Shown piece after piece: positions 3,952 through 43,597 of a stretch of 45,416 nucleotides of DNA. The notes below the pieces were generated by a model. That model did not search any database, was not told the DNA's origin, and saw nothing but the letters and a program-made list of their open reading frames with translations. Every line of letters starts with the position of its first letter. Position 1 is the first letter of the stretch. Location of the stretch: contig PCYE01000012.1 of the NCBI GenBank assembly GCA_002762865.1, positions 879 to 46,294 of the forward strand, given 5' to 3'. This DNA comes from Candidatus Woesearchaeota archaeon CG10_big_fil_rev_8_21_14_0_10_33_12. GTDB taxonomy: Archaea; Nanobdellota; Nanobdellia; Woesearchaeales; CG1-02-33-12. The translations under genes and the position numbers were made by a program.

Positions 3952-4028
3952 TTTATTTTCTCCTAAGAGACCAAGAAAAAGAATCTTGTCTCCAGTATAA
4001 CCCAGCCTTGACCGGATTATCTCTTGAT
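3952..4028 (-). promoter_or_regulatory. Structured 5' leader of rps15 (candidate ribosomal-protein leader)
   Basis: Stem ATAATCCGGT/GCTGGGTTAT (4020-4011/4006-3997) and stem GGAGACAAGA/TCTTGGTCTCT (3993-3984/3976-3966) end just before the SD; TATA-like element at about 4047-4058. Confidence 0.5.
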
Positions 4029-4108
4029 ATGAAAAAGAAAACAGGGCTTATTTAAAAAGCTTTCGGGGAATAGCCAGATTAATTAAACCTATTTATAATA
4101 ATAAATTA

Positions 4109-4972
4109 CTAATCAAACAAGGTTTCTGCAACAAATTCAGGACAATCAGACAAATAATGCTCTATTACTGAACCTGTGTGATGATTTATAAAAATAGGGT
4201 TCAATCTTTTTTCAAGGTTTTTCAAGGTTTTTCCAGAAGCAAGATCTTCATCAAAAAACAATACATTCTTTCCCTTATAATCTGAAAGATGCTCCATGTC
4301 TGAGTCTGATATTATTGGATTATTATCATTTCTTTTAAAATGAGAGAATCTAACAAAATATATGTCTGAACCAAGCATATTAGACAATAGTGTCGCAGAG
4401 ATTATTGAGCCATGTGCAGTGCCAACAATCAAATCAATCTTTGATTTTTTGTTAATCTTATCTGCTAAACATATAATTCTTTTTGGATGAGATGCCATCC
4501 ATGTGTATTTATCTTTTTTTGATGTATAGATAAAACCACGCAACTCCTCTGGAATCTTGTTCTTGAAATCTTTCAAACATTCAATTGATCCATCTTTCAA
4601 TGCATAAATGTCTTTTACTAATGATATAGCTTTAATATACAAATCCTGCGAGTTTTTTATTGTATTATGTGTATATTTAAGAGCAATTTTTTGTGAAAAT
4701 TCCACATATTTTTTTGAGTCTAATCTAAGGCCATTTTCTAAAGCAATCTTGTAGTTAAGAATAACATTCACTAATGCAGGAGTCTTGAAGTATATGTTGT
4801 TGCCTTCAGCAAAAATTTTAATCCAGTTTTTAGGATTTTCATGTGATTTTTCAAAATTCAAAATTCTCTTAAGTGATTTTTCAATTTCTGAAAACAAATT
4901 AATATATCTCTCTTGAAATTCCATTTCAGAAGAGGGTTCGTAGTAGTCCATAGAGATATATTTATCAATCAT
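4109..4972 (-). CDS. Phosphoribosyltransferase-fold protein with N-terminal extension
   Basis: VLFFDEDLASGKTL resembles the PRPP-binding loop; start moved to ATG 4972 because the longer ORF overlaps the tRNA. Confidence 0.7.
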   Translation of the reverse strand: MIDKYISMDYYEPSSEMEFQERYINLFSEIEKSLKRILNFEKSHENPKNWIKIFAEGNNIYFKTPALVNVILNYKIALENGLRLDSKKYVEFSQKIALKYTHNTIKNSQDLYIKAISLVKDIYALKDGSIECLKDFKNKIPEELRGFIYTSKKDKYTWMASHPKRIICLADKINKKSKIDLIVGTAHGSIISATLLSNMLGSDIYFVRFSHFKRNDNNPIISDSDMEHLSDYKGKNVLFFDEDLASGKTLKNLEKRLNPIFINHHTGSVIEHYLSDCPEFVAETLFD

Positions 4973-4994
4973 GTTTGAAAATCCTTTAAAAATA

Positions 4995-5115
4995 TAGCCC
5001 TGCGCGGATTCGAACCGCGGTCTCAAGCTCCAAAGGCTTGAATGATTGGTCTAAAATCGCAGATTAACCTTTTTGAAAATCTGTGATTTTCAATTGGCCA
5101 CTACACCACAGGGCT
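4995..5115 (-). tRNA. tRNA-Gln(TTG) with an ~48-nt non-canonical intron in the D-loop
   Basis: Acceptor AGCCCTG/CAGGGCT, anticodon arm CAAGC-CTTTGGA-GCTTG (anticodon 5033-5031), T-arm CGCGG-TTCGAAT-CCGCG; removing about 5050-5097 gives a standard 73-nt tRNA; no encoded CCA. Confidence 0.93.
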
Positions 5116-5194
5116 GCAATGCAAAAGAACTGTATTTTGTTTATAAAACTTTTTATTCGAAAGCTTTAAATGAATTATCATTTTATTCCTTTTC

Positions 5195-6424
5195 ATGCAG
5201 CCATTATGCCTTAAATGCAAGGGAAGAGGCTTTTGCGGAAGAACCTTTTGCCCGATTTACGCAAAAAGCCAGGCAATCTTCAAGGTTGAAAAAATGCTTG
5301 ATAAGAGTGATTTTTCTAGCTCAAGCCCTGCCCCGTTTGTCGGCTATTATGGCTATCCAAATGTAAATGTTGGTATACTGAGCCCTGCAAAAATTGAAAA
5401 AAAAGCAGAGCTTTATGACGCTCCAAGATATTGGGCAGATCATAATTTTAAGATACCAGAAATAGTTGATTTAAGGTCCTCTTTAATAAACTCAAGATTC
5501 AAGATAGAGGTAAAAAAACAAAATAAGTTTTTGGAGATAAGCAAAGAGGTTGGAATGGCATCAAAGCCAGTTGATGTTGAACTGTCATTAGATGAAAAGC
5601 CAAGATTCAAGCTAAAAGTTGATTCATATAATGCACCAATGGGCCCAAATGCAAAGCTGAAAAATGTACAAATAACCTCAAACCCAAAAATATCACATTA
5701 TGTTGAAAAAGTTGTTGATGATATTGATTTAAAAGCAAAGAATGCAATACTTTACTTGCATAAAAAAGAGTTTGATGAAAATTTTCTCACAAAACTGTTG
5801 AGTGTTGGAAATATTGGGCTTAAGAAAAACAGAAAATTAGTTCCTACAAGATGGAGCATAACTGCAACAGATGATATGATTGCAAAAGAGCTTATAGAAA
5901 GTATTAAGGATTACAAGCAGGCAGATTATCTTGCTTTTTTTGGCTCTTATCTTGGGAATTATTATTTAATCTTACTGTTCCCAGAGCCATGGTGTTACGA
6001 ACTTTTTGAGACATATATGCCCAAGACAAGTTGGAATGTTGATGAAAATATAAACTTTATGACAGATTATGAGCCATATCATGGAAGAAAAACATATGCT
6101 GAAAACTGCGTAGGAGGCTATTATGCGGCAAGGCTTTCAATAGCTGAAAAACTTGAAAAAATGAAAAAACAGTCCTCTGTTTTGGCATTAAGGTTTATCA
6201 CAGGAGAATATGCAGTTCCTTTAGGTGTTTGGGTTGTAAGGGAGGCAGTAAGAAAAACAATGAAGAACAGGCCAATTGAATTTGCCTCAAAAGAACTGAT
6301 GTTAAAATATGCAGGATTATTAATAAAAAAGAAATTCAACTATGACATTAATAATATCCTCAAAAGCAGCATACTTCTCAGGAACATAAAGAATCAGACA
6401 AAGCTTAGTAAATTTCTTAATTAA
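5195..6424 (+). CDS. nreA: Nre family DNA repair protein
   Basis: N-terminal CLKCKGRGFCGRTFCP, KLVPTRWSITATDD, GGYYAARL, PLGVWVVRE; C-terminal PIP box QTKLSKFL. Confidence 0.93.
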   Translation: MQPLCLKCKGRGFCGRTFCPIYAKSQAIFKVEKMLDKSDFSSSSPAPFVGYYGYPNVNVGILSPAKIEKKAELYDAPRYWADHNFKIPEIVDLRSSLINSRFKIEVKKQNKFLEISKEVGMASKPVDVELSLDEKPRFKLKVDSYNAPMGPNAKLKNVQITSNPKISHYVEKVVDDIDLKAKNAILYLHKKEFDENFLTKLLSVGNIGLKKNRKLVPTRWSITATDDMIAKELIESIKDYKQADYLAFFGSYLGNYYLILLFPEPWCYELFETYMPKTSWNVDENINFMTDYEPYHGRKTYAENCVGGYYAARLSIAEKLEKMKKQSSVLALRFITGEYAVPLGVWVVREAVRKTMKNRPIEFASKELMLKYAGLLIKKKFNYDINNILKSSILLRNIKNQTKLSKFLN

Positions 6425-6427
6425 GAT

Positions 6428-6518
6428 TGTTGATTATCAACAGATATTAATAAATATGTCTTATTTGTTGATTATAAACAAAAAGGGTTAAATAATTGTT
6501 AAATATTGATTATCAACA
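6428..6518. repeat. Three copies of the palindrome TGTTGATTATCAACA at 38-bp period
   Basis: 6428-6442 perfect; 6466-6480 TGTTGATTATAAACA; 6504-6518 TATTGATTATCAACA. Confidence 0.85.
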
Positions 6519-6557
6519 AAAGCTTTAACAATAAAAGTTTATAGTAATTAACAAGAA

Positions 6558-9086
6558 CTAGTTAATTTTCTTCTTAAAAGATTCCAACTCATCCATGAAT
6601 CTCTTTACTGTTTTCACAAGATGCTCTGGCTGTGTTTTTAATACTTCAGCTGTTTTTGCCAGAATATCCCCATGAAATTTTTCTGTTGATTTCAGCTCAA
6701 AATCCTGTTTGGAGATTCGCTTTTCTTTTTTTAATGCCTTTTTTGCCTTTTTCCATTTAATGAATAATTCTTCTGCCCTTGCAGGAATTTGTGCTTCATT
6801 AACATTTAAAATTTTTGAGAGCTCATCTAAAATCCCCTTCTTTTTATCAATTTCATGCTTAGCTCTCTCCCCTGCAACAAACTCTATCCTCACAACACCA
6901 TCCTGGATTTTTGTTGACTTTAATATTCTTATTTTTCCTACCTCTGAGGTGTTTTTAAGGTGCGTTCCGCCGCAGGCCTCAACATCCAAACCTTTGATTT
7001 CAATAATCCTTATCTCTTTTCCAGGAACAGCACCGCCCTGGTAAATGCCCATTCCATATTTTTTTTCAGCCTCATTTCTTGGCATAAAAATTGAATTAAT
7101 CTGAATTTTATCCTTAACTATTTTATTGGCAAGGTTCTCAATTTTTTCAATCTCGTCATTTGTAATGCTCTGATAATGAGTAATGTCAAGATGAGCTTTT
7201 TCAACAGTTTTTTTTGCACCTGCCTGGTTTATATGGGGTCCTAAGATTTTTCTTGCAGCTGCATTTATTATATGTGTTGCAGTATGGTGATGAGTCAACT
7301 GCAATCTTCTGCCAATGTCGATTATCCCCTCGATATCATCCCTTTCCCTGAATTTAGGCTTTTCAGATAGAGTATGAACAATTACATTTCCCTGCTTGAA
7401 AACATTAATTACATCCTGATTATTTAGTTTTCCATTGTCATGATCCTGGCCCCCGGAGCTGGGATAAAATACTGTCTTATCCAAAACAATGTTATTGCCA
7501 ATAATTTTCAGAACCTTTGCCTTAAACTTATCTTTATGGCAATCGTCAAAATAAAGCGCCTTTGTCTCAGGAATATTTTTTAGGTTAAGATTTTCCTTTT
7601 TTTCAGCAATCTCTTTTTTCTCTTCACTATGAAGCTCTGAAACAAGTGAATAGAAATTCTTTGGAACATCAACTGCCTTTCCAAGCTTCAGGGCTTCCTT
7701 GCTGATGATTTCGGGGTCAATGCCATGACTATCATATAACTCCAAAAGTTTTTTTTCTGTTATTTCCTTTCTGATTAGGTTCTGGATTATCTGTCTTGAC
7801 TTCTGCTTTGTATTTTCATATTTTTCCTTTTCAACATCAAGTATTTTTTCAACTGCATCAAGGTTCTTGCTTAACTCTGGAAATTCACCTTTTAGTTCCT
7901 CTGCATGCCACCTGCAGACAGCTGGCAGGCTAATATCCCAGTTGTATTTGTCAATAAATGAAAATGAGCGTCTTGCAAGCATCCTCAGATTATAACATCC
8001 TCCCATATTAGATGGCAGTGCACCATCGCTTAATGCAATAAGCAAGCCTCGTGCATGCTCTGCAATTGAGTAAAGGGCTGCCATTGGCAATATGGCTTTT
8101 TTTAATTCATCTACACTTATCCCAACTTTACCGGCAACATCTTTCCATGCCTTGTCAATATCATCAACCTCATCAATATTAAGGAATCCTGCATAAGGAA
8201 CATATTTTTTCATAATCTCTTTATCATATGTTATGCCTGTTTTTTCTATGAGTTTTTTTACAACAGATGGGAATGATGCATCATAAATTGTTGGAGTGCC
8301 CTGGCTGAACCATGCGCACCTTTCCATTCCCATCCCCATATCAAGCACTTTTAATGAAAGCTCTTTTGGCTCGGTTTCTGTCTGCTCATACATCATGTAA
8401 ACCTGGTTTCCTATTTCCACTCCCCGGGAAAAGAATTCCATGCATGGCCCAAAATTGCCTCCTCCTGCCCATGCATCTTCATGAAAGGTAATCTCTGAAT
8501 CAGGGATTCCCAAACCATTGTTAAGCCATTTTTTTATATGCCTGAAAACCTTGTTCTGGTCCCATTTATCAGGTGAGACAAACATATGCTGGCCAATCAT
8601 GTTAAAGCAGGTCATGTGGCTGCCTGTTATTCCAACATTATCAATATCTCCAAACCGTAAGCAGAATTGAGGCACTACCAAAGGATTTGCAGGTGGTTCA
8701 ACCTCTCCACTAACAACATATGGCTGGAAATCAGCAATGCTTGCTATTACAAAATCCATGTCAGAGCGCCATCTTGCAACAATAGGATAGCGTTTTATTG
8801 GTGTGTAGCCTAACTCCCTGAACATCTTTGAGAATTTTTGCCATACTTCAATATAACCTAGCTTTTCCTTGCAGGGATTATCCTCAAAAAACCTAAATCC
8901 GCCTGAGCAGGCAGTATCACCGCAAAAATCCCTGTTTTTATTTGTGGTCCAGAAATACTTTCCGCACTTTGTACATTTCTTCCTGGCAAATCCATCTTTC
9001 TTCAAAACATCTGTTGCATAATATTTGTCAGGGTTTTTGCCTGCCTCTTTCCTAAACCATTTTTTTGCTTCTTTGTCTGATAGCAT
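6558..9086 (-). CDS. alaS: Alanine--tRNA ligase, archaeal type
   Basis: N-terminal Zn ribbon, IASIADFQP, QFCLRFGDIDNVG, DMGMGMER, editing motifs HHTATH and CGGTH. Confidence 0.97.
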   Translation of the reverse strand: MLSDKEAKKWFRKEAGKNPDKYYATDVLKKDGFARKKCTKCGKYFWTTNKNRDFCGDTACSGGFRFFEDNPCKEKLGYIEVWQKFSKMFRELGYTPIKRYPIVARWRSDMDFVIASIADFQPYVVSGEVEPPANPLVVPQFCLRFGDIDNVGITGSHMTCFNMIGQHMFVSPDKWDQNKVFRHIKKWLNNGLGIPDSEITFHEDAWAGGGNFGPCMEFFSRGVEIGNQVYMMYEQTETEPKELSLKVLDMGMGMERCAWFSQGTPTIYDASFPSVVKKLIEKTGITYDKEIMKKYVPYAGFLNIDEVDDIDKAWKDVAGKVGISVDELKKAILPMAALYSIAEHARGLLIALSDGALPSNMGGCYNLRMLARRSFSFIDKYNWDISLPAVCRWHAEELKGEFPELSKNLDAVEKILDVEKEKYENTKQKSRQIIQNLIRKEITEKKLLELYDSHGIDPEIISKEALKLGKAVDVPKNFYSLVSELHSEEKKEIAEKKENLNLKNIPETKALYFDDCHKDKFKAKVLKIIGNNIVLDKTVFYPSSGGQDHDNGKLNNQDVINVFKQGNVIVHTLSEKPKFRERDDIEGIIDIGRRLQLTHHHTATHIINAAARKILGPHINQAGAKKTVEKAHLDITHYQSITNDEIEKIENLANKIVKDKIQINSIFMPRNEAEKKYGMGIYQGGAVPGKEIRIIEIKGLDVEACGGTHLKNTSEVGKIRILKSTKIQDGVVRIEFVAGERAKHEIDKKKGILDELSKILNVNEAQIPARAEELFIKWKKAKKALKKEKRISKQDFELKSTEKFHGDILAKTAEVLKTQPEHLVKTVKRFMDELESFKKKIN

Positions 9087-32314: not shown

Positions 32315-34747
32315 TCACATCTCAATTCCGAGTTTAATATCTTCTTGGCATTCAATCTCTGCTTTATCGCCAAAAACAATTTCTTCTGCTTTTACTGTTT
32401 TTTTTATGTCTTTTAGCACGGAATTAAGGTCTTTCTTTGTTTTTTCATCGCACTTAATAATTAGTGTTTTAATAGGCTTGTTCAGTGAGAGGTTTTTTTC
32501 TGACTTGAACTTTCTCACAGCTGAAATAATACTGACTGCATTATCACCTGCAAGCTCTGCTTTTTCATCAGCAAGTCCTTTTTGGTATTTAGGCCAATCA
32601 GAAACATGAATGCTTTTCAAACCCTCAATCTCTGCAAAATAAAGGTGATAGATTTCTTCTGTAATATGCGGTAGTATGGGGGCCATTAACTTTAGTATTG
32701 CTAAAGTTGTATTATACAATGTATAATGTGCTGAGTCAACTGCTTCCTTGCTATAATCAGCTGAATTATATAACCTATCCTTAACAATCTCTAAATAATT
32801 ATCACAGAACTGCTGCCAGAAAAACCTTTCTGTTTCTGATTTTGTTCTTGAGAAATCATATTCTAAAAATGAATCTGTGCAGGCCTTAATAAGCTTGTTA
32901 AGCTTTGAGAATATCCATTTATCAATTATCTCAAGCTTTGTTTTCTTTGGATTATAACCTTTAAGGTTCATTATTGCAAACTTTGAAGCATTCCACATCT
33001 TTGTCATCATCTTCTTTCCAGAAACAAGCTCTTTTTCCTGGTATGGAATATCTGAGCCAAGCTTTGCAGATGCTGCCCAGAATCGCATTGCATCTGATCC
33101 GTGCTTTTCAAGAACAACCTTTGGCTCAACAATATTTCCCTTGCTCTTGCTCATCTTTTTTCCCTTTGGGTCAAGTGCATGGCCGTTTATCATCACATCT
33201 TTCCATGGCAGCTTGTCTTCATGCAAAAGCATTTTTACAACAGTGTTGAAAAGCCAGAAAGTTATTATGTCATGCCCATTGCTTCTCAAGGACATTGGAA
33301 TCATCTTATTAAAGAATTTATCATCTTCTTTCCACTTTGTTGCAATCATCGGGCTTAAGCTTGAGGTTGCCCATGTGTCAAATACATCCTTCTCAGGAAT
33401 TAATTTATCACAGCCGCATTTTGGGCATTTATTTACAGGCGGCTTGTCTGTTGTAGGATCAACAGGCAAATTTTCCTCTTTTGCAAGAATTACTTCATCA
33501 CATTTTTCGCAATACCAGACCGGAATTGGAACACCATAAAAGCGCTGCCTTGAAAGGCACCAGTCCCATTGCAGTCCATTTACCCAGTTATCATATCTGA
33601 CCTTCATATGCTTTGGATACCAGTTTAGTTTGTTTCCAGCTTCCAAAAGCTTGTCTTTTATATCAAGATATTTCAAAAACCATTGCTTTGTAACCAGGAA
33701 CTCGACCTCTGTTCCGCAGCGCTCATGAACATTAAGTGTGTGGGTTATCTGCTCCTGCTTTACCATAAAGTTATTTGATTTTAAATCCTCAATTATTTCT
33801 TTTCTTGCGTCATTAATTTTAAGCCCTTTATATTTTCCCGCAAGTCCATTCATAACTCCATCAATAGTTATGCTTATTTTCAAAGGCAGATTATAAGCGC
33901 TCCACCATTCAATATCAACCAAATCACCAAATGTACAGCACATAACTATTCCAGTTCCTTTCTCAGGGTCTGCTCTTTTATCTCTCTTTATTGGAACCTT
34001 ATAATCAAATAAAGGAACAACTGCATTTTTTCCTATCAAGCCCTTATATCTTTTATCATCTGGATTTACAAAAACAGCTACGCATGATGGCAATAGCTCT
34101 GGCCTTGTTGTTGCTATTTCTAATTTCTTGTTAGAATTTTCAAGCCCAAACAGGATATGATTAAAAAAGCTTGTCTCTTCTTTATCTTCTAATTCAACCT
34201 GTGCAATTGCTGTCTGGCACTTTGGGCACCATATTGTCGGGGCCTCCTTTCTGTACTCGCGCCCTTTTCTGTATAAATCTAAAAATGACCTTTGGGATGT
34301 CTTTCTGCACCATTCGTCAATTGTCCTGTAATTAATGGACCAGTCTGGCGATATTCCTAATGATGACCAGTCTTTTTTAAGCTCTTTTTCAGCCTCCTTT
34401 GTTTCATTAAGGCATATCTTTATGAATTCAGGCCTTGGAATATCCCTTGCTCTTATGTTGCATTTTTTCTCAACAAAACGTTCTGTTGCAAGCCCATTGT
34501 CATCAAAACCGAATGGATAAAATATATTTTTTCCAAGCATTCTCTGAAATCTCATAACATAGTCTGCCTGTGAGTATGCCATTGCATGGCCTATGTGCAT
34601 CTTTCCTGAAACAGTCGGAGGTGGAGTGTCGCATGAAAACGGTTCTTTCTTTGACTTAGGGTCAAATCTGTAAATTCCCTGTTTTTCCCAATAGGCCTGC
34701 CATTTCTTTTCTGCTTCTTTTGGCTCATAATGCTTTGATAGTTCCAT
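32315..34747 (-). CDS. valS: Valine--tRNA ligase, archaeal type
   Basis: DTPPPTVSG, HIGH, ATTRPEL, WDWCLSRQR, DVFDTW, KMSKS. Confidence 0.97.
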   Translation of the reverse strand: MELSKHYEPKEAEKKWQAYWEKQGIYRFDPKSKKEPFSCDTPPPTVSGKMHIGHAMAYSQADYVMRFQRMLGKNIFYPFGFDDNGLATERFVEKKCNIRARDIPRPEFIKICLNETKEAEKELKKDWSSLGISPDWSINYRTIDEWCRKTSQRSFLDLYRKGREYRKEAPTIWCPKCQTAIAQVELEDKEETSFFNHILFGLENSNKKLEIATTRPELLPSCVAVFVNPDDKRYKGLIGKNAVVPLFDYKVPIKRDKRADPEKGTGIVMCCTFGDLVDIEWWSAYNLPLKISITIDGVMNGLAGKYKGLKINDARKEIIEDLKSNNFMVKQEQITHTLNVHERCGTEVEFLVTKQWFLKYLDIKDKLLEAGNKLNWYPKHMKVRYDNWVNGLQWDWCLSRQRFYGVPIPVWYCEKCDEVILAKEENLPVDPTTDKPPVNKCPKCGCDKLIPEKDVFDTWATSSLSPMIATKWKEDDKFFNKMIPMSLRSNGHDIITFWLFNTVVKMLLHEDKLPWKDVMINGHALDPKGKKMSKSKGNIVEPKVVLEKHGSDAMRFWAASAKLGSDIPYQEKELVSGKKMMTKMWNASKFAIMNLKGYNPKKTKLEIIDKWIFSKLNKLIKACTDSFLEYDFSRTKSETERFFWQQFCDNYLEIVKDRLYNSADYSKEAVDSAHYTLYNTTLAILKLMAPILPHITEEIYHLYFAEIEGLKSIHVSDWPKYQKGLADEKAELAGDNAVSIISAVRKFKSEKNLSLNKPIKTLIIKCDEKTKKDLNSVLKDIKKTVKAEEIVFGDKAEIECQEDIKLGIEM

Positions 34748-34808
34748 TTTACTAAGAACAGGTGGCTTATTATATAAAGTTTTTGCTGAAAATCAGGTTA
34801 AAATGCAA

Positions 34809-35693
34809 TTAGATTATTAAGATTACACCAACAAACATCAAAGTTATAGCAATCAGTTTTAGCAGTATAGCTGACTTTCCAATTTCTTCCTTTAGTATTT
34901 TTGGATAAAAAACACTTAAAATTACAGCAATTAATAAAACAAAAAATGGCTGGACTGAGGATAGGGCATTTACCAAAGTTATATATCCCTTTGTCATTGC
35001 AATTGTAATCAGTATAACAGCAAACAAGGCAAGTATTTCATTTAAAGATATTAAAATAACTGTTTTTTTGCCATGCTCCCTTACTGCAAGTATTAAATCC
35101 TTAAAACTAAAGCAGAATGTTGGAATTAAAGCAAAAAATGCTCCAATCCGAATATATGAAAATATAGTCCAGAAATCAACAAAATTAAGAAGATATTTTG
35201 TTATAACTGCATTTATAGAGAATACTAAGGAAGCAAGAACCATAAACCAAAAAGCTTTTCCAAAACCAAATTTTATGAAATTTTTTGAAGAGATAGAAAC
35301 TGCACCAATTATCAATAAAAATATGCCTAAATATTTTATAGGTGTAAAAATTTCTCCCAGGAATATTGCTGCAAGAATTGAAACAAATAATGAACTTAAA
35401 TAAAGTAAAGGAATAACCCGTGAAATTTCCTCTATTTTTACTGCTTTGAAATAAAAAAGAATTCCTATAACATATAAAATTCCAGCAACAAAAGCCAAGG
35501 CAATATTAAAATAAGACAGATAGGAAAAGCCGTGAAACAAATGCACAAAAAAACTTGCAATTAATCCAATTATACCAAGAATCATAAGGGGAACAACAGG
35601 TTTTTTAACCAGTTTTGTAAGAACATATTTATCTACTGTATTTACGATCGCCCATACTGCGGCTGATAAAATTGAAAATAATATCCATGACAT
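34809..35693 (-). CDS. EamA/DMT family transporter
   Basis: About 10 TM helices in two repeats; FLGE and QPFFVL motifs. Confidence 0.9.
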   Translation of the reverse strand: MSWILFSILSAAVWAIVNTVDKYVLTKLVKKPVVPLMILGIIGLIASFFVHLFHGFSYLSYFNIALAFVAGILYVIGILFYFKAVKIEEISRVIPLLYLSSLFVSILAAIFLGEIFTPIKYLGIFLLIIGAVSISSKNFIKFGFGKAFWFMVLASLVFSINAVITKYLLNFVDFWTIFSYIRIGAFFALIPTFCFSFKDLILAVREHGKKTVILISLNEILALFAVILITIAMTKGYITLVNALSSVQPFFVLLIAVILSVFYPKILKEEIGKSAILLKLIAITLMFVGVILII

Positions 35694-35737
35694 ACTAATC
35701 AGTTAAGGGGTATACTTAATAAATTTTCCTAAAACAT

Positions 35738-35792
35738 GGTGTTGGTTAATCTTCGGTTGGTAAATAAGGGCTGTTAAGAATCGGTTGATAAA
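35738..35792 (+). repeat. Left terminal inverted repeat
   Basis: GGTGTTGGTTAATCTTCGGTTGGTAAATAAGGGCTGTTAAGAATCGGTTGATAAA. Confidence 0.85.
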
Positions 35793-35841
35793 AAAATTAA
35801 ATAAGAAAAGATTTATAACTTCAAGTATATTTTATAATAGT

Positions 35842-35994
35842 ATGGGAGTAGAACACGAATCTGCTAAAAGAATCTTAACTAACGAAAAATGTCCTAAATG
35901 TGGAAGTAGACTGTATAAATCACGATTTTACAAAGCGACAATTATTGAGTGTAGTAAATCTACTTGTGGATATGAAAAAACGTTAAAATTTTAA
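35842..35994 (+). CDS. 50-aa zinc-ribbon protein
   Basis: CPKCGSRL...CSKSTCGY; TATA-like TTTATAA about 25 nt upstream of ATG 35842. Confidence 0.7.
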   Translation: MGVEHESAKRILTNEKCPKCGSRLYKSRFYKATIIECSKSTCGYEKTLKF

Positions 35995-36245
35995 TTTTGG
36001 ACTGCTTTTTGCAGTAAGTCTTTCCATAAATCACTTTCTTGAATTTTTGCTCTTTGTGCTGGTGTCATCTTTAATTCTTGATGTTGCCTTACAAAATTGT
36101 AATAAGTCTTAAAGTTCTCTGCATACTGTTTTTGATTTCCCTTAAATCCCCTCATAGTCTTATCCTTTTGCCTAAAGCTTTCATAGAAGCGTTCTATTAC
36201 ACTATTGTTGCTATCATGCTGTCTTAAACTGACATACTTATAATG
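35991..36245 (-). pseudogene. C-terminal fragment of a DDE (IS6-like) transposase
   Basis: NNSVIERF...RQKDKTMRGFK...YYNFVRQHQELKMTPAQRA; the N-terminal and D-D regions are absent. Confidence 0.85.
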
Positions 36246-36340
36246 AGGATTGGGATTTTTTAAAACGAAAGATTTATAAGTAGCATACTTATAAGCTTTA
36301 AAGTAATATACTTTTATGAATAAAAATAGCATACTTATAA
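36233..36340 (+). promoter_or_regulatory. Repeated CATACTTATAA boxes (candidate operators)
   Basis: CATACTTATAA at 36233, 36284 and 36330; the last two extend to TAGCATACTTATAA (36281-36294, 36327-36340). Confidence 0.55.
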
Positions 36341-36341
36341 A

Positions 36342-36512
36342 ATGCCATCTGACAAACGAATTGCAGGTTATCTTTCTGAAGAAGATTATGGATTATTCAA
36401 AACCGCACTCAAAAAATATGATGTTGGAGAATCAGGATTGATTCAAGAAATTGTTCACGCTTGGCTGTTTGCCAATAAACTACAGCTCAATCAAAAAAAT
36501 AAAAAAGTCTAA
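36342..36512 (+). CDS. 56-aa ribbon-helix-helix-like regulator MPSDKRIAGYLSEEDYGLFKTALKKYDVGESGLIQEIVHAWLFANKLQLNQKNKKV
   Basis: Beta-strand/helix/helix pattern; ends 14 nt before the methyltransferase; not in the ORF track. Confidence 0.7.
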   Translation: MPSDKRIAGYLSEEDYGLFKTALKKYDVGESGLIQEIVHAWLFANKLQLNQKNKKV

Positions 36513-36526
36513 ACAAAAGGATTACT

Positions 36527-38281
36527 ATGAAAAAGAATGGGCATTCAACACCAGAAAGAAAGAACGGCACAGTATATACTCCAGAAAAGCTTTCTCAATA
36601 CGTAGCAAAAAAATTGTTAGAATATGCTTTGAATGATAACTTATTTAGGAATTTAAAGAAGATAAGTGTTGTAGACCCTGCGTCGGGGGATGGGATACTT
36701 CTTAAAAACGTTGCAGAAAATATATTACAACAAAAACTCCTTATGGGAAAAAAAATTATAGTTGTAGGGACTGATATTGACCAACAAGCCATAATTTTTT
36801 GTAGAAAGAGATTGTCTTTAATATCAAATGATAGATTGAACATTGAATTAGTAAATACCAATGCATTCATTCCACTCAAAGAATATTCTTTGACAAAAGG
36901 ATGGCAAGGAATACTAAAAAAAGTAGATGTTAAGAAAGGATTTGATCTACTCATTGCTAATCCTCCGTGGGGGGCTGATATTTCAGAATATAAAGATAAA
37001 CTCAATTTATCCGATTTCAAAACTCTTCAAGGGCAGTTTGATTCTTTTGAGTTATTCATAGAACTGGCAATAAAAATCGTTAAAACCGGTGGATATTTTG
37101 GGTTTATCATTCCTGATTCAATACTTAATCATGGCAAAAGCATTCTACGAGGAATCCTTTTAAAAAGAACACAAATATGTTTTATAGCCAGATTAGGAGA
37201 GAAGATATTTCCTAATGTGAATAGAGCGTGTGTCGTAATAATTTGCAAGAACACGTCCCCTACAGAGAAGAATATTGTTGATTGCTTTAGACTCTCAAGC
37301 AAAGATAGGAATAAAATCCTTAATGGAATGCTCACATTTACAGAAGCAGAAACCACATCAGCACACAAAGTTCCTCAAGAACGATTTATCAAAAATTCAT
37401 ATCAGCGATTTGATATTGACCTTAAAGAAAGTGAAACAAATATATTAAAGAAATTTAAGAAATTTGATAAGACACTTGCTTCTGTTCTATCAAGCACGAG
37501 AGGGGTAGAACTTGGTAGGTCAGGAATGATCTGCCAGTGTAATAATTGCTCTTCATGGTCTCCATTATCTGAACAGGAAAAAATTATCTGCTCTTCATGT
37601 GGTAAAGAGTTTAACCCAACGACAGCACCAAAAAAAAGTATCATATCTAAAGATAAAATACAACTATCTGTTCCGTTTATTACTGGTGGGAATTTAAGAA
37701 GATATGTTGGTCGCCCTTCCCTTTGGATTAAACTTGGAGTTAAAGGGATAAACTACAAACCTGAAAGCACCTATAAATCACCAAAAATACTTGTAAGAAA
37801 AACTGGAGTTGGTATAACTGCAATTCTTGATTATAACGATGTTTATACTAATCAAGTAGTTTATATTCTAAAAAATATTCCAGAAAAAGAAAAAAATCTT
37901 GAATTTTTTATCGGACTGATAAATTCAAGAGCATACTATTTCTATCTGGTAAAATCATTTGGGGAACTTGAATGGAAATCCCATCCATATCTTACTCAAA
38001 CTCAAATACTTAGCTTGCCCCTTCCAGACATGCAATCAGAAAAAAATAAAAAGATTATTCAAGAAATAATAGAATTGCTTCGTCCAATTCTTAAGAAAGA
38101 AATTATTCCATCAAATGATGTTGATATAAAAGTGGAGATACTTGTAGGTAAACTATTTTCCCTTAATGAGAAAGATTATAGGATAATTTTTAATGCAATT
38201 GAAGAATCCGATGATTTGATACCTGTAATGGAACTCAAAAAGATAACAGTAAGTGATATTATAAATAAACTCAAGAAGTGA
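36527..38281 (+). CDS. N6-adenine DNA methyltransferase, gamma class (TaqI/Eco57I-like) with C-terminal TRD
   Basis: GTVYTP, VVDPASGDG (motif I), IANPPW (motif IV), GFIIPDS, KILVRKT, GLINS; Zn-ribbon insertion. Confidence 0.92.
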   Translation: MKKNGHSTPERKNGTVYTPEKLSQYVAKKLLEYALNDNLFRNLKKISVVDPASGDGILLKNVAENILQQKLLMGKKIIVVGTDIDQQAIIFCRKRLSLISNDRLNIELVNTNAFIPLKEYSLTKGWQGILKKVDVKKGFDLLIANPPWGADISEYKDKLNLSDFKTLQGQFDSFELFIELAIKIVKTGGYFGFIIPDSILNHGKSILRGILLKRTQICFIARLGEKIFPNVNRACVVIICKNTSPTEKNIVDCFRLSSKDRNKILNGMLTFTEAETTSAHKVPQERFIKNSYQRFDIDLKESETNILKKFKKFDKTLASVLSSTRGVELGRSGMICQCNNCSSWSPLSEQEKIICSSCGKEFNPTTAPKKSIISKDKIQLSVPFITGGNLRRYVGRPSLWIKLGVKGINYKPESTYKSPKILVRKTGVGITAILDYNDVYTNQVVYILKNIPEKEKNLEFFIGLINSRAYYFYLVKSFGELEWKSHPYLTQTQILSLPLPDMQSEKNKKIIQEIIELLRPILKKEIIPSNDVDIKVEILVGKLFSLNEKDYRIIFNAIEESDDLIPVMELKKITVSDIINKLKK

Positions 38282-38285
38282 TACA

Positions 38286-39365
38286 ATGGGATACCGTTAT
38301 ATTGGAGCAAAGACCAAAATTAGCAATGAGATTATATCAGAAATCTCTAAGATTGTGCCTAGTGGTGGAAAGATAGCAGACATCATGTGCGGAACTGGAG
38401 TGATTTCTCTTGAACTTAGAAAAAAAGGATACGAAGTTATAGCTTCTGATGTTATGTACCAAGCGTGCCATATCACTAAAGTTAAGGTTCTGCTTCAGCA
38501 AGCACCGCCATTCAATGGAGCAAAAAAATATTTCTCCAAGAAAGGGCAACTGTTGCTAACTGGGTATTCTGGATATGAAGCAATAATTCAAGCACTTAAT
38601 AATTTACATCCGTTCAAAGGATATTTTTGGAGGGAATTTAGCCCAGAAGGAAAACCAAAAAATGGTTCTGCACCACGAAGATACTTTACAGCAGAAAACG
38701 CACAAAAAATTGATTCTGCGAGGGCATTTATCAAAAAGCTAAAAGAAGAAAATGCTATTACTAACATTGAGTATTCCTTGCTTGTCCATGATTTAATCTT
38801 TGCGGTAAATGACGTAGCCAATATTGCAGGAACGTATGGTCACTACCTTTCAAAATTTGTTGAAAGGGCAAAACAGCTAATAAGATTTACACCAACAAAG
38901 TTTGAAAATGGTGGAATCACAGAAGGGCATAAAATATTTCAAGGACATGCTGAAGAACTGGTAATTAATATGCAAGCCGACCTTTGTTATATTGACCCAC
39001 CGTACATAAAAAGACAATATGGAGCAAATTATCATATACTTGAAACTATTGCTAAAGGAGACGAACCTACAGCAGAAGGAAAAAGTGGTTTAAGACCATG
39101 GAGAGATGAATATTCTGATTTTTGCTCTAAAGTAAAGATTCGTAGTGCTTTTGAAAAAATATTTAATGGTATGAAATGCAAAAATTTCTTAATAAGTTAT
39201 AGCTCAGATGGGTTACTATCAAAAAAACAACTGATGGAACTTTTTGAAAAGTTCGGCACAGTTATTGTTAAAGAATTTTCCCATAAGAGATTCAAAAGCA
39301 GAAATGAAGATGCCGATGAAAACGTTACAGAATATCTTTTTTTTCTGAAGAAGACTAACTCTTAG
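38286..39365 (+). CDS. DNA adenine methyltransferase, alpha class (D12/FokI-like)
   Basis: RYIGAK, ADIMCGTG, YIDPPY..RQYGANYHILET, LISYS. Confidence 0.92.
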   Translation: MGYRYIGAKTKISNEIISEISKIVPSGGKIADIMCGTGVISLELRKKGYEVIASDVMYQACHITKVKVLLQQAPPFNGAKKYFSKKGQLLLTGYSGYEAIIQALNNLHPFKGYFWREFSPEGKPKNGSAPRRYFTAENAQKIDSARAFIKKLKEENAITNIEYSLLVHDLIFAVNDVANIAGTYGHYLSKFVERAKQLIRFTPTKFENGGITEGHKIFQGHAEELVINMQADLCYIDPPYIKRQYGANYHILETIAKGDEPTAEGKSGLRPWRDEYSDFCSKVKIRSAFEKIFNGMKCKNFLISYSSDGLLSKKQLMELFEKFGTVIVKEFSHKRFKSRNEDADENVTEYLFFLKKTNS

Positions 39366-40459
39366 TTAAATTGGGTTACAATTTTTGCATGTTCTGGATG
39401 CCATGTTATGGTATACTCTTCTCCGTTAATCTTAAAAGTAAGTTTATTGTCTTTAATTTTCTTCAAATCAAGACCTTCAACATTTGCGTAATGAAGCTTC
39501 CTATGAATTAATGGATTTATAATCACTATGTTACGAGCCGAATCAGAACCGTTCTGTCCTAATAAAATAAGGTGATGACCTTCTGAATAATACTTTCCAT
39601 TACGTTTTTTGAATGCATACTGTTCTCCAGAAATCTGACATATATTTTGATAAAGTTCCTTGAGTTTTCTTACAGCTTTGGTGTTGCGAATTCTAACCTT
39701 TCTCATTAATTCTTTTACTATTGCTGGAGCATCGTTGGCAACCTCTTCATCTTCATCAAAGAAAACTTTTTGGGAATTTTGAGCCTTATCAGAAATTTCT
39801 TCTTCAGGTTCTGTCTCTAGTTCGTCAGAATCACCAATAAAATTGTCAAGAGAAGGAGGTGCTTCTGCTCTTGGAATTACCTTAAAAGCCCATGCAGGGT
39901 CTGATGTATCAAAGAGAACTTCTCCATTAAACTCTATGTAGCCTGCATTCTCTGTAAACATCCTATTAAGTTTTCTATTTACCGCCCAATCTGGTTCTGG
40001 TGTGCCTGCCTGAAACCATCCAGCCCAATACTCTCCGTTATCCAATTTAGCAATATAAACATGAAGGTTCTCAATATGGATTCTCACAGAAGGGTCGGCT
40101 GGTTGAGGAAATCCTGTAAGGTCTGGTCTCCAAGCATGAACTCTATTATTTTCACTACTTCGTATTTTTTGTGAAGCTATACTAACTGAATTTGCCCTAC
40201 GTTGATATATTTTAACCCTCTGAGTCCCAGTATCAGCTCCAAGACTTAAGATTGGGACTTCCCAACTTGAACCTTGTGTAAACTGTATAGGTGTGATTCC
40301 TCGTAAAAAAGTGTTCCAGTTTTGAAGAGTTACTCCTGAAGTTGGAAAATCAATATATGACTATCCACCGCCACCTACTTCAATTCCAGCGGGTTTATTT
40401 ATATTAAAAAAATCCGCATCCGTTATCTTTCTGAAAACGACACTTTGGACTACTTGCAT
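39362..40459 (-). pseudogene. HNH restriction endonuclease interrupted by an in-frame TAG at codon 33
   Basis: One continuous frame from ATG 40459 (MQVVQSVVFRKITDADFFNINKPAGIEVGGGG*SYIDF) to 39362; TAG at 40363-40361; C-terminal CQISG...EGHH...GSD...NIVIINPLIHRKLH. Confidence 0.85.
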
Positions 40460-40608
40460 GTAACGTAGAGAATAAGTTCTTATTTATAAATATACGTTAT
40501 TACCCGCCATGCAATACCCTAACTTGAAACAACATCACAAACAAAATAGAAATATTTATAAATATAAGTATATTTCTTATTTCACACATAATGTGGAGGT
40601 TAAGCAAA

Positions 40609-40929
40609 ATGGCAAAAAACAAAGAAGGAACAAAAACAATAAAATTGGGTATTTATTTTTGGACAAATTTGGATAAAAAGAATACTAATGAAGGTATTGA
40701 CATGCCTAAAAAGACTTGCTGGGATAGCGGATTTGTTAATGTTGTTTCGAACAATAGGCACGGACTAAGGTCTGGGATTTATAGTAATTTCAATAATTTT
40801 GATGAATTGCCTAATGCTGTAAAAGATGCACTTAAAAGAAGTGGAGTAAGGGTAGTTCAAAGTAAAAAGGATAAGGAGTATAAAGAAGCCCTAAAAAAGA
40901 TGAAGGAATCTGAATTAATAGCAAATTGA
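40609..40929 (+). CDS. Hypothetical cargo protein
   Basis: GGAGGT SD at 40595-40600; BRE-TATA upstream; ends 8 nt before the right TIR. Confidence 0.75.
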   Translation: MAKNKEGTKTIKLGIYFWTNLDKKNTNEGIDMPKKTCWDSGFVNVVSNNRHGLRSGIYSNFNNFDELPNAVKDALKRSGVRVVQSKKDKEYKEALKKMKESELIAN

Positions 40930-40937
40930 GAAAATGA

Positions 40938-40992
40938 TTTGTCAGCCGATACTTAACAGCTTTCACTTGACATCCCATGGTTGAACAATACC
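40938..40992 (-). repeat. Right terminal inverted repeat
   Basis: Minus strand GGTATTGTTCAACCATGGGATGTCAAGTGAAAGCTGTTAAGTATCGGCTGACAAA. Confidence 0.85.
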
Positions 40993-41010
40993 CTAAAATA
41001 TTGAGCATGC

Positions 41011-42216
41011 TCAAGATGAATTAGAAATTGTTGTTTTAACTAGTTCTTTAAGGGTTTCAATGATTTTTTCAGAGAATTCTACTTTTATTGAGCCCATTGC
41101 AAAGTTATCACGGCCGCCGCCCTTGCCATTAAACTTATCCATAAGGTTTTTTAGAAGTTCATTAGCCTTAAATCCAGAATCTTCTGAAGCAACAATAATT
41201 ATCTGTGCATTATCACAAAGCTTGTTCAGAAAGCAAACAACTGTTTTTTCTTTTTTTAATGATGCTGCCTGGTCAATAAGCTGCTTTTTTTCAACCTCAT
41301 CAAAGGTATTGTAAACAAAGTTAATATCATTAATCTTTTCCTCATTGAATTCTTTTACAAGGCTTGCGCTTAACTCCCTCAGCTTAGCAGTTTTCTTTTC
41401 ATTTTCCTGCATTAAGTTTTCAATAAACTCAGGAACCTCCTTAACATCTTTTTTTATTATTGAAGAAGATAGTCTTGCTATGCGGGCAAGCTCAAACAAG
41501 TCTTCTGAAACATTTGTCTTAAATCTTATTTCATAATCTCCTTTAAAAAGGTTGAATTTTGTTACAAGAAAATTGCCAATAAAATTTGTTTTTAAAGCAT
41601 GGGTTCCAGCGCATGCTGAGATGTCATGATCCTTTATCTCAACAATCCTTATTTTTTCGTCTTTTATGCGGTCAAGCTTTATCCTTAATCCAGGAATTTT
41701 TGCTGCTTCTTCTTTTGTAATCTCTTTAACAATTATGTCTCTGTTTTCTTTTATGATTTTGTTTGCAAGCTTTTCTGCCTCAAAGATTTTTTCCCATGTT
41801 AAATTTTTACAGATTACAAAAAGTGAGGATTCATCTTCATCTAATCTTACCTTGTTAACTTTGATGTCTTTTATTGTTTTTAGCAAAGCTCCCATAAAGA
41901 TATGCTCGCCTGAATGCATTCTTACAAGTCTGAGCCTTCTATTAATACTATGCTCACATGAAACCATATCATCTATTTTTAAAGTTCCATCAATAATCTT
42001 AACCTTATGAACTATCTTACCATCTTTTTTAGAAATATTAACAACCTTTCCCTCAAAATAATTATTTTTTATAATGCCTGTATCGCAGGGCTGTCCTCCT
42101 CCAGCAGGATAAAAAATAGTATCATCCAGCTCAACCAAAAGAAAGTCTTCTTTTTCTTCAATATTTGTTATTTTTGCGTCTTTTTTATGCAAAAAAGATT
42201 CTTGGTAGGTTTCCAT
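41011..42216 (-). CDS. alaX: Long-form AlaX trans-editing protein with C-Ala/DHHA1 domain
   Basis: TIFYPAGGGQPCD, HSGEH, CAGTH, C-terminal GKGGGRDNFAMG. Confidence 0.9.
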   Translation of the reverse strand: METYQESFLHKKDAKITNIEEKEDFLLVELDDTIFYPAGGGQPCDTGIIKNNYFEGKVVNISKKDGKIVHKVKIIDGTLKIDDMVSCEHSINRRLRLVRMHSGEHIFMGALLKTIKDIKVNKVRLDEDESSLFVICKNLTWEKIFEAEKLANKIIKENRDIIVKEITKEEAAKIPGLRIKLDRIKDEKIRIVEIKDHDISACAGTHALKTNFIGNFLVTKFNLFKGDYEIRFKTNVSEDLFELARIARLSSSIIKKDVKEVPEFIENLMQENEKKTAKLRELSASLVKEFNEEKINDINFVYNTFDEVEKKQLIDQAASLKKEKTVVCFLNKLCDNAQIIIVASEDSGFKANELLKNLMDKFNGKGGGRDNFAMGSIKVEFSEKIIETLKELVKTTISNSS

Positions 42217-42217
42217 T

Positions 42218-43597
42218 TTAATTAATCAGCTTTGTGAATATCTGTTTTAATTCTTTTGGCGAGGCCTTCCCTTTGGTAGCTTTCATTACCTGGCCTATTA
42301 AAAAATGAAGTGCCTCTTTTCTTCCTTTTTTGTAGTCAGAAACAACCTTTGGATTTTTTAGTATAACATCCCTGCATATTTTTTCAAGCTCTTTAACACC
42401 TGAGATAGCCATTAGTTTATGCTCTTTTACACAACTGTTTATATCAAATGGCTTTTCAGCAAGTTTTTCAAGGATTTTCTGCGCAGTTGTTTCTGTTATT
42501 TTATTTTCTTCAATTAATGTTAATAAGCTAATCATGTGTTTTTCATTTATTTCTGTTTCAGAAAGCTCTTTTTTATTATAGTTCAAAACCCTTAAAAGCT
42601 CAAACCTCAGCCATCTTGCTGCAAGCAATGGATTTATTTTCCTGGCTGTTTTCTCAAATAGTTCGGAAAGCATTATATCAGAGCAGATAACAAACGCATC
42701 CTGTTTTTTTATTTTATACTGCTTTGCTAATCTTTCTATTTTTTTGTCAGGACTTTCAGGCAGTGTTTTTATTATTTTTTCGATATAATTATCATCAATA
42801 TTTATTGCCGGAAGGTCTGGCTCAGGGATAAACATGTAGTCAGCTGCTTCTTCTTTTGAGCGCATGAAAATAGTTTTATTATGCTTTTCATCAAATGCGC
42901 GGGTTTGCTGCTTTATTTCCTTTCCTTCCTTTATCTCTTCTTCCTGCCTTAAAACCTCGTACTCTGCTGCCTTTACAATGTTGCTGAATGAATTAACATT
43001 TTTTACCTCAACCCTGCTGAATTTTGGGCCAATAGAAATATTTGTATCTGCTTTTACTCCGGAGTTTTTGTCAATTGCCTTTATGTAATTTAATGTTGTT
43101 AACAATGCTTTTAGCCAGTCTCTTAGTTCATTTGTTGATTTAAAGTCCGGCTCTGTCACAATCTCAACCAATGGAAAACCTGAGCGGTTATAGTCAACAT
43201 TTCCTGTTACAGGATCCCATCTTGCAGGGTCTTCCTCAAGGTGGACATCAGATATTCTTATTCCGAGGAATTTTCCGTTTACGCCGACAGGGTTAGAATA
43301 TGAGCCTGACATTGTTTTTTGAAAGCCGGCAGGAAGGTCTGGCCATGAGTAATGCTTTCTCTGGAAAAGCATTCTTTTGTTTATTTTGCATCCAAGCATT
43401 AAGGCGATTGCAATTATCTTATCTACGGCCTGCTTGTTTGGAAGCATCGGCTTTGAGCCGGGCATTGCTGTGCATATCGGGCAGATGTTTGTGTTTGGAG
43501 TTGCATCTTCCTCAATAGAGCAGTTGCAGAATAATTTAGTCTTATTCTCTACATTAATATAGCCATGAATCTCTAGGCCACACTTTATCTCAGTCAT
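42218..43597 (-). CDS. gatB: Asp/Glu-tRNA amidotransferase subunit B
   Basis: GLEIH, TKLFC, CPICTAMPGSKP, HLEED, DYNRSGFPLVEIVTEPD, EVKNVNS, PEPDLP, FLIGQVMK. Confidence 0.95.
   Translation of the reverse strand: MTEIKCGLEIHGYINVENKTKLFCNCSIEEDATPNTNICPICTAMPGSKPMLPNKQAVDKIIAIALMLGCKINKRMLFQRKHYSWPDLPAGFQKTMSGSYSNPVGVNGKFLGIRISDVHLEEDPARWDPVTGNVDYNRSGFPLVEIVTEPDFKSTNELRDWLKALLTTLNYIKAIDKNSGVKADTNISIGPKFSRVEVKNVNSFSNIVKAAEYEVLRQEEEIKEGKEIKQQTRAFDEKHNKTIFMRSKEEAADYMFIPEPDLPAINIDDNYIEKIIKTLPESPDKKIERLAKQYKIKKQDAFVICSDIMLSELFEKTARKINPLLAARWLRFELLRVLNYNKKELSETEINEKHMISLLTLIEENKITETTAQKILEKLAEKPFDINSCVKEHKLMAISGVKELEKICRDVILKNPKVVSDYKKGRKEALHFLIGQVMKATKGKASPKELKQIFTKLIN

Follow-up and report, generated by a model that had tools for sequence, protein, structure and literature searches.

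A 45,416-nt stretch of the genome of Candidatus Woesearchaeota archaeon CG10_big_fil_rev_8_21_14_0_10_33_12 (the window) contains, between the housekeeping genes alaX and eamA, a 5,255-bp inserted element (35738–40992) that carries a predicted restriction–modification (R-M) unit within a single pair of terminal inverted repeats (TIRs). We conclude that this element is most probably a non-autonomous derivative of an archaeal IS6-like transporter insertion sequence (transporter IS, tIS), which after loss of its transposase gene has in effect become a mobile insertion cassette (MIC). The source genome, G000, from a tiny archaeon of groundwater, comprises 1.05 Mb in 53 contigs, is 93.7% complete and has a G+C content of 32%. 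Coordinates throughout are positions in the window, and the labels G, L and X designate genomes, loci and sequencing runs, respectively.

IS6/IS26 elements are the standard example of mobile DNA whose cargo travels between two IS copies. An archaeal group with internal cargo in all eight complete elements widens the known range of IS6-type transposases, and the long, multi-site ends of this group raise a tractable question: how three phased sites are used together with the extra N-terminal domains of the transposase. The group also assigns a transposase family to an inverted-repeat-bounded R-M unit, units of this kind having been described from bacteria in 2010 with no transposase. To our knowledge, DPANN archaea, with genomes of ~1 Mb, have few recognised mobile elements; the element described here shows a specific route through which one lineage may have acquired an R-M system that was not found in 400 sampled relatives. 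Within the population, codon 33 of the nuclease gene of the unit is either TAG or CAG.

A precise insertion between alaX and eamA

The 9-mers that flank the element, CTAAAACAT on the eamA side (35729–35737) and CTAAAATAT on the alaX side (40993–41001), agree at eight of nine positions. An empty site is present in G004, a genome of the same genus, where eamA directly follows alaX with 56 bp between them (amino-acid identity to the window genes 79% for alaX and 83% for eamA). In this spacer, the alaX-side flank of the window aligns up to a 9-mer and the eamA-side flank aligns from the 9-mer on. The 9-mer is single-copy in G004, lies exactly at the junction and reads ATGTTTTAG on the strand of alaX and eamA; the eamA-side copy in the window matches it exactly and the alaX-side copy has one mismatch. 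Given the single 9-mer and the adjoining alaX and eamA genes in G004, we conclude that the 5,255 bp were inserted precisely, with duplication of a 9-bp target site, and that the alaX-side copy of the duplication changed at one base after insertion. An earlier sequence-only reading of the window had described the duplication with its mismatch and had anticipated an empty site with a single 9-mer between eamA and alaX, which the congener now provides.

A protein search located alaX orthologues in 11 of the 12 further genomes of the family (13 genomes including G000). In the ten that remain besides G004, alaX is followed by a different gene or by a flank too short to judge, and these genomes are uninformative either way. 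The gene after alaX varies among congeners (L020–L030, 11 relatives): it is eamA in G004, valS in G011 and other genes elsewhere. The position downstream of alaX is a variable junction even without the element.

A DNA search for a second copy of the left end and transposase remnant in the 93.7%-complete G000 assembly found none. In runs X1, X8, X10 and X12, alaX and eamA were not connected across the element by any contig, although contigs cannot exclude a rare empty-site allele. One joint, 36308 to 37876, is present in X10 contigs (side 21) and is too short to trust.

The ends contain three phased sub-sites

The element is bounded by inverted arms of 55 nt each (35738–35792 and 40938–40992) that are 71% complementary and separated by 5,145 nt. 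They are the longest of 72 inverted pairs returned by a repeat search of window positions 34500–42500. Because the genome has a G+C content of only 32%, 71% complementarity of the arms would by itself be weak evidence, and the support comes from other genomes. The transposase-proximal end (35738–35792, plus strand) has a GGTGTTG tip, contains sub-sites at positions 18, 32 and 46, and scores 66.5 against a position weight matrix (PWM) of the ends. The far end (40938–40992, minus strand) has a GGTATTG tip and three more degenerate sub-sites, with a PWM score of 51.0. In the left arm, TTAATCTTCGGTTGGTAAA is followed 28 nt on by TTAAGAATCGGTTGATAAA, as the sequence-only reading had recognised, with a third, weaker site in between. 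The left arm is homologous to the transposase-proximal ends of elements in G037, G385, G260 and G106.

The PWM was built from 12 ends, including the far end of the window element, which themselves score 51.0–76.2. When these 12 ends (from six elements, one of them the window's) are aligned, all begin with GGYRTTG and have three sub-sites spaced 14 bp apart; GG at positions 1–2 and G at position 7, the signature of IS6-type ends, are found in every one. We searched 401 genomes of the order with a 40-column IUPAC pattern based on the ends, GGYRTTGKT-N8-GNNTGNYRA-N5-RNNTGKTAA, allowing at most one mismatch. The pattern matched 31 times in 19 of the genomes, compared with one match for a reversed control pattern; one of the 19 genomes, G323 (2 of the 31 matches), is unpublished. 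Only the two arms were matched in G000, and pattern and PWM scans revealed no further internal ends or second IS body within the window. The 55-bp TIRs starting GGT(G/A)TTG described earlier thus have counterparts of the same end type in other genomes of the order.

The transposase stump belongs to an IS6-like family

Next to the left end lies a remnant of a transposase gene, an open reading frame (ORF) of 113 aa on the minus strand (35991–36332). Real homology extends over ~35991–36262, which corresponds to residues ~283–369 of a 380-aa transposase, and the ORF begins with ~22 codons that overlap the operator region of the R-M unit. The stump is 62% identical to the 380-aa transposase of G037 and preserves no more than the final ~87 residues, so that only the last third of the DDE domain remains. 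In the alignment, the stump retains the E motif (IERF..R..DK) and lacks the WxADEQ and VTDGAF motifs, which presumably hold the two catalytic Asp residues of the DDE triad. Both Asp motifs being absent, and no other copy having been found in the 93.7%-complete assembly, the element is expected to be immobile unless complemented in trans, as had been suggested from the sequence.

Intact transposases of the family are 380 aa long and combine SWIM, Zn-ribbon and HTH domains with an IS6-type DDE domain. For the G037 protein, Pfam DDE_Tnp_IS240 (PF13610) scores 53 bits against a cut-off of 27 and the IS1/IS1595-type zinc ribbon NF050000 scores 32.9 bits against a cut-off of 28; the SWIM match is weak. 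The IS6-like assignment proposed earlier agrees with the NCBIfam models, among which IS6 is the top family for all four transposases tested. The transposase is also 34.7% identical to ISCpe7 over residues 142–356 (tblastn), and NCBI labels its cluster ‘IS6 family transposase’. With the G037 transposase as query, relatives at E ≤ 1e-10 were found in 57 of 401 genomes of the order, G000 included; this tally contains the unpublished genomes G218, G143 and G323, from which none of the elements described here comes. A contig scan with the same protein returned only G037's own contig.

The ends and the transposase are physically linked. Immediately after the C-terminal codons of the closest transposase copies (64–68% identity), the sequence is homologous to the left arm of the window element. 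In the elements of G037, G385 (two copies), G260 and G106, the end repeat encodes the last ~17 codons of the transposase, with the stop codon inside the repeat. The association of the TIRs with this transposase family, on which the sequence-only reading depended, is therefore built into the intact copies.

A sister group of transposases was seen at L038–L044 (G107, G142, G247, G146, G139, G108 and G156). These proteins are ~280–340 aa long, lack the SWIM part and are 61–64% identical to residues ~86–375, with differing, repeat-rich sequence downstream. Each of their genes has a divergent small Zn-ribbon gene upstream (C-x2-C ... C-x2-C ... YW).

Related elements carry diverse cargo within one pair of ends

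Motif and weight-matrix scans yielded eight complete elements including that of the window; the other seven are 1.5–4.5 kb long. All eight contain ORFs other than the transposase inside one pair of ends. The 9-bp duplication is perfect in six of the eight; the window copies agree at 8/9 positions and those of G260:C1 differ by one indel. In the intact elements, the cargo is positioned between the far end and the 5' end of the transposase gene.

Two of the relatives are in G385. The first (G385:C38; 2,676 bp, duplication CTATTTTTC) has an intact 380-aa transposase and carries a ribbon–helix–helix (RHH) gene with ORFs of 149 and 193 aa. The second (G385:C12; 2,586 bp, duplication CCACCAATG) has a 367-aa transposase ORF, ~13 codons short, with cargo of 70 and 156 aa. 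The G037:C15 element (2,416 bp, duplication GATTCTACT) has an intact 380-aa transposase and a 366-aa RelA/SpoT-like protein (L067 2830–3930) that is a full-length match to the PADLOC candidate defence family PDC-S33 (3.7e-117). The G260:C1 element (3,464 bp) encodes a 383-aa transposase and proteins of 477 and 166 aa. The transposase in G260:C1 (L065 2007–3158) reads WNANEQ where relatives have W(H/N)ADEQ; the presumed first catalytic Asp is Asn, and this copy may be inactive.

The element in G106 (G106:C49; 4,482 bp, duplication CTTTGATGG) has one in-frame TAG in its transposase gene and carries a PLD/NgoFVII-like nuclease, an Eco57I-type methyltransferase and a Zn-ribbon ORF. The G106 methyltransferase is only 18% identical to the window enzyme MT1, described below. 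This second, different R-M system within one TIR pair, together with the differing cargo of the other members, supports the earlier proposal that the family moves cargo inside single elements; the related genomes that were to be checked for the TIRs thus contained both the transposase family and other cargo.

Two further elements lack a complete transposase gene. That in G191 (G191:C20; 1,926 bp, duplication CCCCTACAG) retains a C-terminal stump only and carries a 444-aa ATPase. In that of G333 (G333:C3; 1,541 bp, duplication CTTTTTTGG), 11 N-terminal transposase codons are fused to the end-repeat tail, and the cargo of 171 and 175 aa is homologous to that of the intact G385:C38 element. The transposase gene has been lost repeatedly in this family, in G333 and G191 as well as in the window. 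Passengers and a complete transposase gene are found within one end pair, the arrangement that defines a tIS, in G385:C38, G037:C15 and G260:C1.

For the solo ends of elements in G247, G355, G208 and G260:C18, no partner ends were found down to a PWM score of 10, and these were not counted among the complete elements. The G191 element (L071 747–2681) is adjoined by a 108-bp right-end remnant (639–746) that shares 93.5% identity with the element's own right end. Remnant and element are separated by nothing but the 9-bp CCCCTACAG, and the same 9-mer follows the element. This layout recalls insertion beside an existing end or a partial tandem and is suggestive at most as regards cointegrate formation. 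Among the complete elements, only simple insertions were seen.

The cargo is a conserved R-M unit

The largest part of the element is a predicted type II R-M unit composed of an HNH nuclease and two N6-adenine DNA methyltransferases (MT1 and MT2), with an RHH-like gene in front. MT1 (36527–38281, plus strand) is a 584-aa gamma-class enzyme that matches Pfam Eco57I (3.3e-19), N6_Mtase (2.6e-16) and TaqI_C (3.8e-11), as well as M.BseCI in the PDB (1.8e-16) and MTase_II in PADLOC. MT2 (38286–39365, plus strand) is a 359-aa D12-class enzyme that matches Pfam MethyltransfD12 (1.4e-34) and PADLOC MTase_II (9.6e-69); the PDB sequence search gave no match for it. The HNH restriction endonuclease gene is convergent with these (39362–40459, minus strand) and has 365 codons, in which a TAG at 40361–40363 replaces Gln33. 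The C-terminal ~85 residues of the nuclease match the HNH domain of McrA (6ghc, 1.1e-12), while the N-terminal ~220 residues have no match among solved structures. The 241-aa ORF originally reported for this gene has to be extended: the frame continues upstream of the GTG at 40087, past the TAG, to an ATG at 40459.

The RHH-like protein (36342–36512, plus strand) has 56 aa and was recognised by its sequence pattern, with no Pfam match above threshold; it is the probable controller of the R-M unit. Upstream of it, the region 36268–36341 contains an inverted repeat (36273–36305 and 36309–36341) and a 20-nt direct repeat, is conserved in the metagenome loci L078 and L079, and is likely to be the RHH operator.

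Relatives of the nuclease number 272 at E ≤ 0.001 among 1,267 candidates and are mostly ~350 aa long. Of 80 metagenome loci with the nuclease, 73 have an MT2 orthologue next to it and 61 have an MT1 orthologue there, with the convergent order kept; loci without adjoining methyltransferase genes are mostly interrupted by contig ends. The cargo is therefore a conserved three-gene R-M unit. In L078 and L079, two loci without an IS, the gene immediately in front of the MT1 orthologue encodes an RHH homologue (73% and 59% identity, respectively), and the RHH gene thus belongs to the R-M unit and not to the IS. The nuclease was not found in any of the 400 other genomes of the order searched, only in G000 (1/401).

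The metagenome loci also bear on how the unit was joined to the IS. L078 is 84.1% identical in DNA sequence to window 36267–40500 over 4,238 bp, and a three-way alignment of the window, L078 and L079 shows upstream homology ending at the same point, ~36268. In L078, a family-type end (PWM 43.9) abuts the nuclease side, with different host genes next to it; a second end was not found in this locus down to a PWM score of 8, nor by its 9-mer. In L081, R-M genes in the same order are followed by a family transposase of 497 aa with SWIM, Zn-ribbon and DDE parts.

In L081, 7.9 kb (723–8637) lie between ~100-nt imperfect inverted repeats and also hold a 495-aa ORF. No target duplication was recognised at these repeats, and L081 is excluded from the complete elements. 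L082 contains a 2.6-kb IS (887–3481) whose tips are the canonical GGTTCTG and whose inverted repeats (52 nt, 83%) include CGGTTGAT sub-sites; it has a duplication of 8 or 9 bp, CCAAGCAA(G). This IS lies beside, not around, an orthologous R-M unit, 0.7 kb away.

The nuclease gene varies at codon 33

Gln33 is invariant in 20 of 20 aligned nuclease homologues, and the window has TAG at this codon. Contigs of runs X1, X8 and X10 read CAG at 40363, whereas X12 (depth 2.7) agrees with the window; X1 and X8 may be sources of the window assembly and are therefore not independent of it. With CAG in contigs from three of the four runs, the nonsense codon is a variant and not a fixed state. The 365-aa nuclease with Gln at codon 33 is a recorded protein (P0001). 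A 1,287-bp contig, L088, is 99.8% identical to window 39901–41189, including the end of alaX and the far end repeat. L088 has CAG at codon 33 but lacks 2 bp corresponding to window 40114–40115 (L088 position 1075), which reflects either a second independent inactivation or an assembly error. Reading of TAG as a sense codon was ruled out: long ORFs of the window (810 and 459 aa) are open under table 11 and the sister contigs read CAG.

Additional segments next to the ends

Two short segments separate the core of the element from its ends. A 69-aa Zn-ribbon ORF (35785–35994, plus strand) lies on a ~200-bp segment (~35793–35990) and has Pfam zinc-ribbon matches below threshold. In intact relatives the transposase gene runs directly into the end repeat without this segment, and the ORF is an extra ~200-bp insertion between the transposase remnant and the end repeat. 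No homologue of the ORF was found in 200 other genomes of the order or in the loci compared, and the segment was not found elsewhere in G000. In X10, the summed contig depth over 35789–35990 is 27.1, compared with 6.9 alongside, and contigs of X1 and X10 have loose ends at 35789, 35797 and 35803; the segment is probably present at further places in the community as well.

At the other side, a 112-aa orphan ORF (40591–40929, plus strand) lies on a ~440-bp segment (40501–40937) that is missing at this position in L078. The orphan has no Pfam, NCBIfam or PADLOC match and no usable protein-atlas match; its only relative, a weak one, is in L078 (25% identity, E 1e-4). All genes listed in the sequence-only reading are thus present, with two revisions as to their origin: the RHH gene travels with the R-M unit (L078, L079) and is not an IS gene here, and the Zn-ribbon ORF is on an insertion that relatives lack.

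Proposed mechanism and alternative explanations

The window element has IS-type ends and a target duplication around passenger genes and no functional transposase, the combination that defines a MIC; as it retains only a stump, it is not itself a tIS. In the model that we favour, a transposase from an intact sister element elsewhere would bind the three 14-bp-phased sub-sites of each ~55-bp end, cleave at the GG tips and join these to a target cut with a 9-bp stagger. The pathway could be IS26-like copy-in via a cointegrate or cut-and-paste. With the cargo of intact elements enclosed between the far end and the start of the transposase gene, the whole unit is expected to move together. The RHH protein would control the MT1–MT2 operon from the repeat-bearing region 36268–36341. 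The two N6-adenine methyltransferases would probably divide the two strands of an asymmetric (type IIS-like) site between them, a site type suggested only by the presence of two such enzymes, and the convergent HNH enzyme would cut unmodified DNA. Post-segregational killing by an established R-M unit should then stabilise the element. In this model the R-M unit would have been delivered with the ends rather than captured in place.

Several observations weigh against this model. No second copy with the same ends and the same cargo was found at another site, and movement of the 5.3-kb unit as a whole is therefore deduced from relatives. The R-M edge common to the window, L078 and L079 directly abuts transposase codon ~283 in the window, so the event that joined cargo and IS may itself have destroyed the transposase gene; in that case, the unit was either assembled in place or moved only when helped in trans. 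L078 has one recognisable end, and L079 and most other R-M loci have none; end matches across the R-M loci amount to two in 664,946 bp, one of them in the near-identical copy of the window. An intact family transposase, a potential source of complementation in trans, was not found in G000, G191 or G333. As to the IS6 assignment, the NF033587 (IS6) cut-off of 125 bits is passed by only one of four proteins (G385:C38, 128.5; G260, 123.2; G037, 114.5; L081, 102.9). Finally, defence or PADLOC-candidate cargo was recognised in only three of the eight elements, which does not establish defence cargo as a rule.

The alternative that fares best, which we nevertheless regard as unlikely, is capture in place. 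According to this scenario, a plain IS inserted between alaX and eamA, making the ends and the 9-bp duplication. The R-M unit (36268–40500) and the segment with the 112-aa ORF entered later by illegitimate or homologous recombination, replacing the 5' three-quarters of the transposase gene, and the 5.3-kb unit never transposed whole. The scenario accommodates the discrete nature of the R-M unit, whose edge is common to loci without an IS and abuts transposase codon ~283, the lack of a second copy of the element, and the finding that 76 of the 80 R-M loci have no family end or transposase (the exceptions are L078, L081, L082 and L088, the last being the window copy). However, relatives with perfect duplications hold cargo at the same position, from the far end to the transposase gene, and internal deletions of this gene are recurrent in the family. 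In addition, L078, in a different genomic setting, has a family end directly next to an R-M unit that is 84% identical, and L081 couples the same R-M order with a full-length family transposase.

A chance inverted repeat, with entry of the island by another route such as a site-specific recombinase, is very improbable: although the arms are only 71% complementary and the genome is A+T-rich, both arms match the end pattern, which proved highly specific in the scan of 401 genomes, the repeat tips and the 9-bp duplication fall at the insertion points, and the island contains no integrase gene. We give almost no credence to a classical IS6 pseudo-compound transposon with two IS copies around the cargo, one of them decayed. 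Such an arrangement is an established means of cargo movement in the IS6 family, but its functional compound structures have directly repeated IS copies (PMC7986276, in its available text). The element here has a single transposase remnant and two single, inverted ends at its extremes, and no second IS body or internal end was found in the window.

Returning to the non-autonomous tIS derivative, a broader generalisation can be offered tentatively, and we consider it rather less probable than not. The elements could form a separate IS6-like clade, characterised by long three-site ends, 9-bp duplications and a SWIM and Zn-ribbon transposase, that serves as a regular vehicle for defence and accessory genes in the small genomes of Woesearchaeales (DPANN). 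Cassettes without a transposase would continue to be mobilised in trans. The way in which the clade carries cargo would be the opposite of the two-copy pseudo-compound route of IS26.

Comparison with known systems

In the available text of two reviews of the IS6 family (Varani et al. 2021, PMC7986276; Harmer & Hall 2019, PMC6807381), the elements are described as ~0.7–0.9 kb long, with end repeats of 14–20 bp that have GG tips and G at position 7 and with 8-bp duplications, ISH15 from archaea being listed with 9. Archaeal members are ~700–780 bp long and encode transposases of 211–231 aa, there is a zinc-finger clade in Clostridia (clade h), and one member of the family, ISDsp3, is listed with a passenger gene (same sources). 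The group described here shares with IS6/IS26 a DDE_Tnp_IS240-type core with an HTH, the GG tips and G at position 7. Its E motif and basic residues resemble the archaeal IS6 signature E--F---K-R given in the available text of PMC6807381, and the N-terminal zinc finger of its transposases is reminiscent of clade h as described there. The group differs from IS6 in its ~55-bp ends with three phased sub-sites (14–20 bp in IS6), its 9-bp duplications (8 bp) and its 380-aa transposases with an extra SWIM domain (~210–250 aa). The elements are also larger, at 1.5–5.3 kb compared with 0.7–0.9 kb, and all eight have internal passengers, whereas IS6 cargo lies between two IS copies.

The IS1 family makes 9-bp duplications, has GGnnnTG ends and includes a larger archaeal subgroup, ISMhu11, on which we found no paper. 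The 9-bp duplication and GGnnnTG-form ends of the present group are like those of IS1, and its transposases have the N-terminal zinc ribbon NF050000 of IS1/IS1595 (29.2–34.7 bits against a cut-off of 28). They differ from IS1 in that NF033558 scores 47.7–76.6 bits, under the cut-off of 100 and under the IS6 score for every protein tested.

MIC231 and the IS1595 tIS are known under the two terms that we apply here. As the terms are defined by the ISfinder group in the available text of PMC3129680, the intact relatives resemble tIS, being IS with passenger genes inside one end pair, and the elements in the window, G191 and G333 resemble MICs, having ends and passengers without a working transposase. 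We found no description of IS6-like cargo, tIS or MIC elements of DPANN archaea in the open literature, ISfinder and subscription papers being outside the search; the available parts of PMC13343696 and PMC6563490 do not treat IS6-like cargo elements of these archaea.

The closest precedent for the cargo arrangement is bacterial. Furuta, Abe and Kobayashi (2010, PMC2853133) reported R-M genes enclosed by imperfect inverted repeats, for which 8-bp duplications and empty sites were seen; in the available text no transposase is named and none lies inside, the repeats of the unit in Xanthomonas oryzae are 65 bp long and mobilisation in trans is raised as a possibility. The R-M set in the window is likewise surrounded by long imperfect inverted repeats and a short duplication, with an empty site in a relative. 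In the bacterial units as described in that text the duplications are 8 bp and no family is assigned, whereas the transposase remnant in the window and its intact relatives identify the family to which this archaeal unit belongs.

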